The notes beneath the pieces were generated by a model. That model was not told the origin of the DNA. It saw only the letters and a program-made list of their open reading frames with translations, and searched no databases. From contig DAOUBT010000004.1 of the NCBI GenBank assembly GCA_034432595.1, forward strand, positions 18,892 to 82,891: a stretch of 64,000 bases of DNA, given 5' to 3'. Shown in pieces: positions 25,915-30,748 of the stretch; the first letter of the stretch is position 1, and every line of letters begins with the position of its first letter. A program made the position numbers and the translations under genes. The DNA is from Anaerolineae bacterium (GTDB taxonomy: Bacteria; Chloroflexota; Anaerolineae; B4-G1; SLSP01).

Positions 25915-26098
25915 GTATCCCAGGCTCTGCCTGGGGAGCTGGCCAGCCAAACACAAGTTGCGTCCCCCCAGGCTTTGCCTGGGGACTCGCCAGCCAGAGG
26001 CTGGCAGTACGCCGTGTACCCCCAGGCTCTGCCTGGGGACAGCCAAAGGCTGGCGGTACGCCGTGTACCCCCAGGCTCTGCCTGGGGACGGCGCCACA
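25915..26098. repeat. Array of hairpin-forming tandem repeats (units CCCAGGCTCTGCCTGGGG and GCCAGCCAGAGGCTGGC), inverted relative to the 30146-30748 array
   Basis: The repeats are visible directly in the sequence. Their reverse complement aligns with the units of the second array (CCCCAGGCAAAGCCTGGGGGTGACGGTGTACCGCCAGCCTCTGGCTGGCG). Confidence 0.8.
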
Positions 26099-26171
26099 AA
26101 AAAGATACCTACCCCCAACAACAAAAGGCGCGGCTCACGCCGCGCCTTTGCGCACGTTTCCCTACTTCGCG

Positions 26172-26624
26172 TCAGCCCTCAATCTCGTGGATAACGTCTT
26201 CAGGCGATGCGTCGGTGTAGATTACCTTCATCAACCCCGGCAGGTAGCGGTCCATGGTGCGCACGTTGATGTAGATGAGATTCCGCAACATGGTGAAAGT
26301 AGCTTCGCCACCTTCAACGTCCAGCGCCGTCTTGTAGCGCACCTCGCCATCCGAGTAGTCAAACTCGAAGTTGCCGATAATCATGCCGTAGTTGGCGCGC
26401 GTGATAAACTCGACCACGGCTCCGCGCTTCTCGACCGGTGCCTTAATTGGCGCAAGCGAGTAGAAGACAAATTGCTCCATATCCTCACGCGCCTGTGCAA
26501 AGCAGGTCCACTCCCCGTTTTTGCCCGCAAAACCGGTGCGAATGACCGGACGCCCCTCAATCTCCTGATAGGGCCAGTCATCCTGCTTGAAGAAGCTGAT
26601 AAACCCATCGTAAATCCGTCCCAT
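26172..26624 (-). CDS. Small cytoplasmic protein, possibly YbjN-like (putative sensory-transduction regulator / chaperone-like fold)
   Basis: 150 aa. AAAGGATGG ribosome-binding site. The YbjN-like call rests on weak pattern similarity only. Confidence 0.45.
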   Translation of the reverse strand: MGRIYDGFISFFKQDDWPYQEIEGRPVIRTGFAGKNGEWTCFAQAREDMEQFVFYSLAPIKAPVEKRGAVVEFITRANYGMIIGNFEFDYSDGEVRYKTALDVEGGEATFTMLRNLIYINVRTMDRYLPGLMKVIYTDASPEDVIHEIEG

Positions 26625-29600: not shown

Positions 29601-30145
29601 CGCTCGAACAGGGCCGCCCAGCTATAAGGGACAAGGCGCTGCAAGTGTTCCAGCAGACGCGGCCACAGCGCAGCTTCATCGCGAACCACAGCGATATCGG
29701 CGCTCACGGAACACAGAATATCCGCCAGACGCCGCTGCCATTGTTCAGCCTGCAGCTCCTGTAACTGTGCCATAAGCGGCGCGAGCAGCGCGCACAGAAC
29801 GCGCGCATCGTCGGCCACGTCCGCGGAGAGGGTGTGTGCAACGTCCGGGTCCAGCGCCAGCCAGGCCAGGATGCGCCCGTCGCTGGTTATGGGCAGGGTC
29901 AGCGGTGTACCGGCGGGGGTTAGATCGGGGTTGATGTGGTACACGACATGAGCAGGGCGTTCCGTATGCCAGGCGTGCAAGACCAGCGTTACTCTGGCGA
30001 CGGGGCGCCAGGTACACAGATGTTGGGCCACCGCTTCCCCCAGGGTCAAAAGCGAGGTGGACATCAGGGCCGCGCGGAAGGCCGCCCAAACGCGCGGGCT
30101 GGGCGGATCAGCGGTTAGAGCGGCGGTTTCTGAGATGATGTCCAT
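26660..30145 (-). CDS. Multi-GAF/PAS sensor histidine kinase (1161 aa)
   Basis: At least 4 GAF-like segments. PAS domain ([22 protein letters not shown]). H-box [15 protein letters not shown]. HATPase [39 protein letters not shown]. Confidence 0.85.
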   Translation of the reverse strand: [1161 protein letters not shown]

Positions 30146-30748
30146 AGGTTGGTTCCAGTGAACTTTCTACCGTAAAACTTTTGTAGCGCCAGCCTCCGGC
30201 TGGCGAGTTGCCCAGACGGAGCCTGGGGGTACCGGCGTACCGCCAGCCTCCGGCTGGCGAACGTCCCAGGCGAAGCCTGGGGATACAAGGGCAAATTCCC
30301 CGGGCGGAGCCTGGGGGTGACGGTGTACCGCCAGCCTCTGGCTGGCGAACGTCCCAGGTGGAGCCGGGGGGTACAAGGGCAAATTCCCCAGGCAAAGCCT
30401 GGGGGTGACGGTGTACCGCCAGCCTCTGGCTGGCGAATGTCCCCGGCAGAGCCTGGGGGTACAAGGGCAAATTCCCCAGGCAAAGCCTGGGGATACACAA
30501 GCAGAGCCTGGGGGTACAAGGGCAAATTCCCCAGGCAAAGCCTGGGGGTGACGGTGTACCGCCAGCCTCCGGTTGGCGAGTTGCCCAGGCGGAGCCTGGG
30601 GGTACAAGGGCAAATTCCCCAGGCAAAGCCTGGGGATACGCAGGCGAAGCCTGGGGGTACAAGGGCAAATTCCCCAGGCAAAGCCTGGGGATACGCAGAC
30701 GGAGCCTGGGGGTACGCAGGCAAAGCCTGGGGATACACAGGACAAGGT
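30146..30748. repeat. About 600 bp array of complex tandem repeats (units of roughly 47 and 90 bp) built from two perfect 8-bp-stem hairpins: CGCCAGCCTCCGGCTGGCG and CCCCAGGCAAAGCCTGGGG
   Basis: Fills the entire intergenic gap between two minus-strand genes. The ORFs in this interval (PQALPGEFALVPPG...) are repeat artefacts. Confidence 0.85.

Follow-up and report, generated by a model that had tools for sequence, protein, structure and literature searches.

Repetitive extragenic palindromes (REPs) are GC-rich, imperfectly palindromic repeats of 20-40 bp that lie outside genes. Their families range from fewer than 20 units to thousands, dispersed over the genome, and the gene of the cognate RAYT (a Y1 tyrosine transposase) is typically itself flanked by REPs. 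REPINs are inverted REP pairs whose arms fold into a single long hairpin, presumed to be what moves. For the bacterial interspersed mosaic elements (BIMEs) of E. coli and the REPINs of Pseudomonas, roles in mRNA stabilisation, attenuation and supercoiling have been proposed. Another kind of intercistronic repeat, the mycobacterial interspersed repetitive units (MIRUs), consists of tandem repeats of tens of bp lying between operon genes, with a strain-variable content of units; MIRUs are not hairpin-based, and their short open reading frames (ORFs) typically overlap the neighbouring stop and start codons. Members of the REP super-families have a tag of four nucleotides at one end, a stem of 5-13 bp and a short loop, which in many of them is TY; sub-families differ by compensatory stem changes, and head-to-head dimers predominate (PMC3733652). 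Published degenerate REP tags keep G at position 4, and the GTAG-23 REPs of Chloroflexi, found in Thermomicrobium roseum and Roseiflexus castenholzii, are clustered at few loci (PMC3733652). Here, we describe two arrays of hairpin-forming repeats from an Anaerolineae bacterium, located on both sides of a gene pair for a sensor histidine kinase and a YbjN-family protein within 64,000 nucleotides of assembly GCA_034432595.1 (contig DAOUBT010000004.1, positions 18,892 to 82,891; hereafter, the window). We consider it probable that these arrays are clusters of a REP-type element organised like BIMEs, which colonised two intergenic gaps recently and in a lineage-specific manner.

The left (short) and the right (long) array have mutually opposite orientations, as follows from their loops, which on the + strand read TYT in the left array and RRA in the right one, and from 36-nt inverted matches of 86% identity between the two. 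With up to two mismatches allowed, the pattern of hairpin A, CCCCAGGC-NNN-GCCTGGGG, was found 16 times in the window against 0.08 occurrences expected, and that of hairpin B, CGCCAGCC-NNN-GGCTGGCG, seven times against 0.05. A unified tagged pattern, GTAYCSCCAGSCNNNGSCTGGSG (GTAY-CSCCAGSC-NNN-GSCTGGSG), gave 39 matches with up to three mismatches, 0.38 being expected. All of these matches fall inside 25915-26089 or 30183-30736, and no further units were found elsewhere in the window or in the 7.8 kb beyond its right side that are covered by Logan contigs. In a scan of the same 64 kb for perfect stems of at least 8 bp, the only hairpins outside the arrays were three of 11-13 bp that look like ordinary terminators and three solitary ones of 8 bp. 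Both arrays fold more stably than their shuffled versions, the right one at -320.5 kcal/mol versus -256 +/- 8 (z = -7.8) and the left one at -161.7 kcal/mol versus -130.4 +/- 5.2 (z = -6.1).

The hairpin census comprises 26 units; 20 of them belong to the right array and six to the left. An initial annotation of this DNA had noticed two arrays in opposite orientation, and pattern counts, loops and inverted matches bear this out. It had also described them as built from perfect 8-bp-stem hairpins: the units are real, but the stems are perfect in 12 of the 26, and the B hairpins of the left array are imperfect. The shorter array, put at ~185 bp, measures ~175 nt; the longer one was rightly said to fill its intergenic gap, as it takes up 554 nt of the 603-nt gap that separates the stop of the 614-aa cyclase gene (30749) from the start of the kinase gene (30145). 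Pfam agreed with the annotation on the bracketed genes as well, returning GAF/PAS/HisKA/HATPase domains for the 1161-aa kinase and the YbjN family for the 150-aa protein.

The basic unit of both arrays is a 23-nt tagged hairpin, GTAY-C[C/G]CCAG[G/C]C-TYY-G[C/G]CTGG[G/C]G. Hairpins A and B are the same tagged unit with two compensatory stem changes, since a single degenerate pattern captures both, with the tags on opposite strands. In each array, the tags show A and B units to read on opposite strands, head to head and with the tags outermost. Read on the - strand, the right array resolves into 16 modules, each opening with GTAC or GTAT (the module types are given in Table 1), and its distal part is composed of A units only, arranged head to tail. 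Read on the + strand, the left array consists of three A-B doublets (47, 45 and 40 nt) with GTACGCCGT linkers between them and a final single A hairpin; its B arms are partly degenerate. A motif composed of the doublet and the GTACGCCG(T) linker is common to both arrays, and the linkers are CAACT/ACGTT, GTACGCCG(T), ACCGTCA and AATTTGCCCTT. Little variation is seen in the tag-proximal 12-mer GTAYCCCCAGGC, which 11 of the 12 tagged A units of the right array share, while the distal hairpin arm is often degenerate.

This anatomy agrees with the REP/BIME-like character proposed in the initial annotation: the elements are short, GC-rich, tagged extragenic palindromes in alternating orientation, with fixed linkers and tandem reiteration. 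All 26 units are intergenic, 19-23 nt long, with 8-bp stems and 3-nt loops, as expected of REPs, while the alternation of two unit types, the conserved linkers and tandem periods of 49, 88 and 143 nt correspond to the organisation of BIMEs. The head-to-head doublets (40-47 nt) resemble REPINs, although by our own inspection the A and B arms are complementary at 6 of 8 positions, making the long REPIN-type hairpin imperfect. Tandem Repeats Finder reported a period of 49 (88% identity) for the left array and periods of 21, 55, 88 and 143 (91-96% identity) for the right one; taking modules and tandem repeats together, the periods are 21/34/42/46/55/88/143, plus 49 in the left array.

The closest known system is represented by the GTAG-tagged REPs, especially the GTAG-23 family of Chloroflexi (Di Nocera et al. 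2013, PMC3733652). The two share GC-rich stem-loops with an 8-bp stem, a 3-nt pyrimidine-rich loop and a terminal tetranucleotide tag, as well as sub-types with compensatory stem changes, head-to-head dimers, and clusters made of tandem singletons or dimers with bits of flanking DNA. Unlike in GTAG-23, the tag here is GTAC or GTAT, with GTAG occurring once and the fourth position otherwise not G; the stem differs too, as implied by the peptides listed for intragenic GTAG-23 copies (PMC3733652), and many modules of our arrays are truncated half-hairpins. E. coli BIMEs and the REPINs and RAYTs of Pseudomonas resemble our arrays in having two alternating REP types, conserved linkers, tandem amplification and doublets of inverted REPs, and in lying between co-directional genes, including inside operons. 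They differ in that there is no sequence similarity, no RAYT in the window and only 6/8 complementarity of the arms, and in that the distal part here is made up mainly of extra A units, placed head to tail, and of half-units. With MIRUs, the arrays share tandem repeats between operon genes and a unit content that varies between strains; unlike MIRUs, their units are tagged palindromes, and their lengths of 21, 34, 42 and 46 nt keep no reading frame.

Comparison with orthologous loci indicates when the arrays appeared. Kinase orthologs of 61-72% amino acid identity were found in four related assemblies (L055, L056, L057 and L058), and more distant kinase homologs carry the source labels Anaerolineae, Anaerolineales or Chloroflexi. 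Orthologs of the 614-aa cyclase gene are present in L055, L057 and L058 (76-78% nucleotide identity), and YbjN adjoins the kinase in L055, L056 and L057. In L055 (GCA_053494975.1), gene order and strand are identical to those of the window from the upstream response regulator to the downstream radical-SAM gene; the order cyclase, kinase, YbjN, response regulator/cyclase, RNaseH-like, radical SAM is thus conserved on a single strand, with the ortholog of the 509-aa gene in the matching position and a TTGTCT...TATAAT promoter at the equivalent place. The distance from the cyclase stop to the kinase start is 9 nt in L055 and L058 (TGAGGCCGGGCCATG) versus 603 nt in the window, while in L057 the gap amounts to 167 nt of unrelated sequence; no A or B units were found at the L055, L057 and L058 loci, all three of which retain the order and orientation of the genes. 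Since the array-free L055 keeps order and strand, and since the junction in L055 and L058 measures 9 nt, the kinase/YbjN pair is ancestral in place and orientation, and the arrays are the newcomers. The 603-nt gap, then, is a lineage-specific insertion and expansion at a formerly tight operon junction.

The gap between the YbjN and the next cyclase gene of L055 (14000-14270) carries a different palindrome family: GTAG-GGCAGGCAT-CCT-ATGCCTGCC, with a 10-bp stem, followed by a duplicated half-arm, ATCCC-ATGCCTGCCC, and accompanied by GGGCGGGTATTCCAATGCCCGCCC and GGCGGCAGTATCCCTATGCCGCCGCC. The gap between terminator and promoter seems to be a tolerated landing site, where related species appear to keep hairpin families of their own. 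Separately, we observed in the JGI contig L058 that a DDE_Tnp_1 transposase gene (12547-13713) cuts the kinase ortholog short at 849 aa.

Strain data were obtained from Logan contigs of four samples. Contigs of SRR7903765, a metagenome of the Tretyakovsky hot spring on Kunashir Island (PMC8468003), are 100% identical to the window, and three other runs, SRR16606022, SRR26992862 and ERR14373510, hold strains of 99.5-99.7% identity. Both edges of both arrays were reproduced in independent contigs of the four samples. In every strain, the contigs stop inside the arrays at both sites, and hence both arrays are present in all four strains; such arrays break short-read assemblies at fixed points. 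The kinase-proximal unit exists in three different versions among the strains, and the 37-nt spacer between array and kinase differs by one base (G to T) in L002 and L054. In the same contigs, the strains differ in the orientation of the loop in the YbjN terminator, with GCGCGGC-GTGA-GCCGCGC in the window, L001 and L054 versus GCGCGGC-TCAC-GCCGCGC in L002, which looks like a template-switch-type inversion within a perfect stem.

Beyond the species, the exact tagged A hairpin was detected in an Anaerolineales metagenome-assembled genome (MAG) and two metagenome contigs (L004, L042 and L048), between convergent mntP and sigma-70 genes, where it stands head to head with another GTAC-tagged hairpin, CCGACC-NNN-GGTCGG. 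One more contig, L034, has the tagged A hairpin between a gene with a c-di-AMP-receptor domain and an acyltransferase gene; both of its hairpins are preceded by tandem 'tag + arm + loop' half-units, GTATCCCCAGGCTCT x4 and GTCGTACCACCGACYTTT x3. Because the identical tagged hairpin occurs in other genomes between unrelated genes, the hairpin family is dispersed at the level of the lineage rather than confined to our locus, and the reservation in the initial annotation that the units might be unique to this place does not hold at that level. In viral collections, hairpin A had no match, and hairpin B had two, each single and isolated. No transposase was found beside the related arrays in L004 and L034.

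A further observation from these scans concerns the identical tagged hairpin GTAT-CCCCAGGC-AAA-GCCTGGGG as the opening module of a larger dispersed element, which spans 75 nt or more (…CTTTAGTTTGT-GAGCCGCTCAAAGCGGCTTAACGGGACCGC…). This element occurs in metagenome contigs of ~53% GC (L008, L009, L012, L013, L018, L020, L024, L036, L038-L041, L044 and L046), from an unrelated organism, and directly abuts the TAA stop of at least ten different genes. It may be of the REP/terminator type or attC-like (the recombination site of integron cassettes), the latter because its GCTTAAC fits RYYYAAC.

Taken together, these data lead us to file the arrays as REP/BIME-like and not as a proven REP/RAYT system. 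Several points speak against this assignment. The tag is not one of the REP tags GTAG or CGTC, with the sole GTAG at 30183. In the ~72 kb of the source genome that were covered, there are two clusters but no isolated single units. When 185,579 species genomes and the JGI metagenomes were scanned for exact patterns, the source genome turned up in neither collection; the matches were mostly chance singletons or an unrelated element, with very few related loci among them, and the sole real relative of the hairpin among the species genomes was the Anaerolineales MAG; a high copy number, the classical hallmark of REPs, is thus unproven and may be absent. Neither Y1_Tnp nor RAYT nor any other transposase or recombinase was detected in Pfam scans of essentially all ORFs of the window, which recovered signalling and housekeeping proteins and a giant, probable surface protein. 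The order and length of the right-array interior (30333-30668) come from the source assembly only. Hairpin variants include seven G-U-compatible mismatches on one strand, four on the other and 14 true mismatches; there is thus no strand bias among wobble-compatible changes, the trace of RNA-level selection that we had looked for, and no sign of selection for an RNA function. Finally, that the array lowers the expression of kinase and YbjN relative to the upstream genes, or uncouples them, is purely what we infer by analogy.

The main surviving rival is a purely local minisatellite (a variable number of tandem repeats), in which one short sequence containing a hairpin originated at this locus and was multiplied by slippage, neither mobility nor a family being involved. 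Tandem structure with young repeats, the presence of only two blocks in ~72 kb, absence from relatives, unit differences between strains and the very few matches in large collections would all suit such an origin. However, the same modules, including the doublet with GTACGCCG(T), are found at two sites 4 kb apart and inverted, which slippage cannot produce, and the identical 23-nt tagged hairpin recurs with the same head-to-head layout in other genomes between unrelated genes, so a local minisatellite strikes us as unlikely. It is also rather improbable that the right array is an evolved cis-regulatory RNA leader (an attenuator, stability element or small RNA array) selected to control the kinase. 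Its place directly upstream of the kinase start, its very strong structure and the lack of a detectable separate promoter are what such a leader would need; yet it is not conserved at orthologous loci, and the element also lies beyond a terminator, in the opposite orientation, at the left site. Besides the unbiased wobble-compatible changes, there is no Rfam match and no U-tract after any hairpin; in Rfam 15, nothing scored above threshold, and the only hit, mir-3155 at 21-28 bits versus a 70-bit threshold, is a chance match to the hairpin.

The initial annotation had further suggested that the arrays, being inverted, could mediate inversion or excision; they would then be the recombination arms of an invertible or excisable kinase/YbjN cassette or, by extension, part of a composite mobile element carrying these genes. 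We regard this as very improbable. The arrays are indeed inverted and bracket exactly two genes, and an 8-nt direct repeat resembling a target-site duplication, GACAAGGT, lies 4-7 nt outside both of them (25900-25907 and 30741-30748). But L055, devoid of arrays, has the same order and strand, the junction in L055 and L058 is a mere 9 nt, the ancestral orientation is seen in all four strains as far as contig ends show, and the window encodes no recombinase or transposase. As for the direct repeat, two random 40-nt flanks share an 8-mer in 2.6% of pairs and eight comparisons were made, so it may well be due to chance, and the conserved synteny speaks against it; the inverted arrangement around the two genes is incidental. 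The least credible possibilities, to which we give hardly any weight, are an assembly artefact and a translated repeat protein. A 550-nt array is an error-prone target for the assembly of 100-bp short metagenome reads (PMC8468003), but independent assemblies from four samples reproduce the array edges. Because its units lack stop codons, the right array can be read through in all three - strand frames, and the public record contains a 214-aa ORF there; nevertheless, the periods are not multiples of three and the ORF has no homolog besides itself.

Other classifications were tried and abandoned. The MITE-like (miniature inverted-repeat transposable element) alternative offered in the initial annotation failed: terminal inverted repeats are lacking in both arrays, neither is flanked by a duplication of its own, and nothing convincing was seen in the way of a target-site duplication. 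Its exclusion of CRISPR stands: the spacers are constant and themselves repeated, the periods irregular, and no cas genes appeared in Pfam scans of the window ORFs. A coding function was dismissed in view of the periods and because the translated array, compared with 5.8 billion proteins, matches only itself. The publicly recorded 'protein' (P0001, 30108-30752 on the - strand), whose ATG overlaps the cyclase stop (ATGA), is a gene-calling artefact of the stop-free repeat.

Table 1. Features of the array locus (window coordinates) and modules of the right array
Feature	Position	Strand	Details
509-aa response-regulator-GAF-cyclase	24297..25826	-	Domains by Pfam
Sigma-70-like promoter(s) of the 509-aa gene	25859..25895	-	TTGTCT-16-TATAAT, TTGATA-16-TAAAAT
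Left (short) array	25915..26089	+	6 hairpin units; between terminator and next promoter
Intrinsic terminator of the kinase-YbjN transcript	26124..26149	-	11-bp GC-rich stem, then TTTTGTTGTT
150-aa YbjN-family protein	26172..26624	-	Pfam PF10722, 1.6e-10
1161-aa sensor histidine kinase	26660..30145	-	Pfam: 3 GAF, PAS, HisKA, HATPase_c
37-nt unique spacer, right array to kinase ATG	30146..30182	-	
Right (long) array	30183..30736	-	20 hairpin units, 16 modules
Kinase-nearest B hairpin	30183..30205	+	GTAG-CGCCAGCC-TCC-GGCTGGCG; sole unit with canonical GTAG tag
Example A-B doublet	30560..30605	-	GTAC-CCCCAGGC-TCC-GCCTGGG-CAACT-CGCCAACC-GGA-GGCTGGCG, then GTAC; resembles REPIN (inverted REP pair)
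21-nt module	Right array		Tag + 5' arm + loop + truncated 3' arm
34-nt module	Right array		Tag + A hairpin + AATTTGCCCTT
42-nt module	Right array		GTAC-ACCGTCA + A hairpin + AATTTGCCCTT
46-nt module	Right array		Tag + A hairpin + 5-nt linker + B hairpin; head-to-head doublet
8-nt GTACGCCG linker	Right array		Once
614-aa GAF-PAS adenylate/guanylate cyclase	30749..32593	-	Pfam Guanylate_cyc 5e-23, GAF, PAS

The genes around the arrays are all encoded on the - strand, in the order cyclase, right array, kinase, YbjN, terminator, left array, promoter and 509-aa gene (Table 1). The TGA stop of the 614-aa cyclase gene is located 12 nt ahead of the first right-array module, and 19-28 nt separate the promoter(s) of the 509-aa gene from the left array's outer edge. 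Neither a sigma-70-like promoter nor a clear Shine-Dalgarno sequence was detected in the spacer upstream of the kinase ATG, and the right array itself contains no detectable promoter and no hairpin with a U-tract.

Some features of the window away from the arrays may be mentioned here. The block at 16287-23661, with genes for an AAA ATPase, WD40, GrpE-like, HSP70-like, DUF1257, DUF2997 and radical-SAM/4Fe-4S proteins, is conserved in L055 and represents an unusual chaperone-like module. At 54217-58245 on the - strand, a PLD-like nuclease-family protein (PLDc_2, 1.5e-54) is encoded near a HerA-type ATPase (DUF87 + HAS barrel), and the two could be a defence-type pair. The 2889-aa ORF at 35-8704 on the + strand, with a beta-helix and many Ig-like, fn3 and CARDB-type domains, is probably a surface protein. 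Outside the arrays, CTAG occurs once against 55 expected under a Markov model, and GATC is at 0.46 of its expectation; GTAC, considered as a restriction-type signal, is unremarkable in the window at 0.81.

Returning to a REP-type coloniser as the probable nature of the arrays, the following history can be outlined. In a signalling cluster that was compact in the ancestor, units were seeded at two intergenic sites, with opposite orientations. Modules were then duplicated in tandem on the spot, partial hairpins and linker DNA among them, as identity within the right array (91-96%) exceeds that between the arrays (~86%), and the resulting arrays (~175 and 554 nt) still vary between strains. The seeding sites were the cyclase-kinase junction, 9 nt long in relatives, and the gap that follows the YbjN terminator and ends at the next promoter. 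We suppose that the units were brought in by a Y1/HUH transposase of the RAYT/IS200 type, an enzyme specific for single strands whose gene would lie in another part of the genome, recognising the tag and the adjacent arm, and that replication slippage or unequal recombination at the hairpins drove the growth; the elements themselves would be essentially selfish or neutral DNA.

In terms of expression, the kinase gene, once coupled to the cyclase gene, would now be separated from it by ~20 stable RNA hairpins. It is probably still transcribed from upstream, through these hairpins, since neither the array nor the spacer contains a detectable promoter and the hairpins lack U-tracts. By analogy with intercistronic REPs of E. 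coli, the hairpins should protect the upstream mRNA and reduce or uncouple downstream expression. The right array would probably do so by hindering 3' exonucleases or by partly blocking read-through, and post-transcriptional effects of the kind raised in the initial annotation are plausible. The left array comes after an intrinsic terminator and immediately precedes the next promoter; for that reason it probably has no role in RNA, and any effect there would be at the level of DNA.

A bolder version of this history, which we rate as unlikely, is that the units form an uncatalogued GTAY-tagged REP superfamily of Anaerolineae-type Chloroflexi, in which the tag and the adjacent arm are the conserved part and growth proceeds by structure-dependent copying of half-hairpins ('tag + 5' arm + loop'), of which the half-units of L034 and the 21-nt modules of the window would be examples. 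If so, a dedicated HUH/Y1 enzyme should exist, with a cleavage geometry unlike that of known RAYTs and able to split operons.

The arrays are ordinary in kind and open no new category of biology. What they add is a family of the REP/BIME type from a thermophilic lineage that is uncultured and little studied, together with a natural before/after comparison, the 9-nt junction of the sister genomes versus ~550 nt of hairpins. In this way, a single signalling cluster offers a case for how selfish palindromes may alter co-transcription and the balance between cyclase and kinase.

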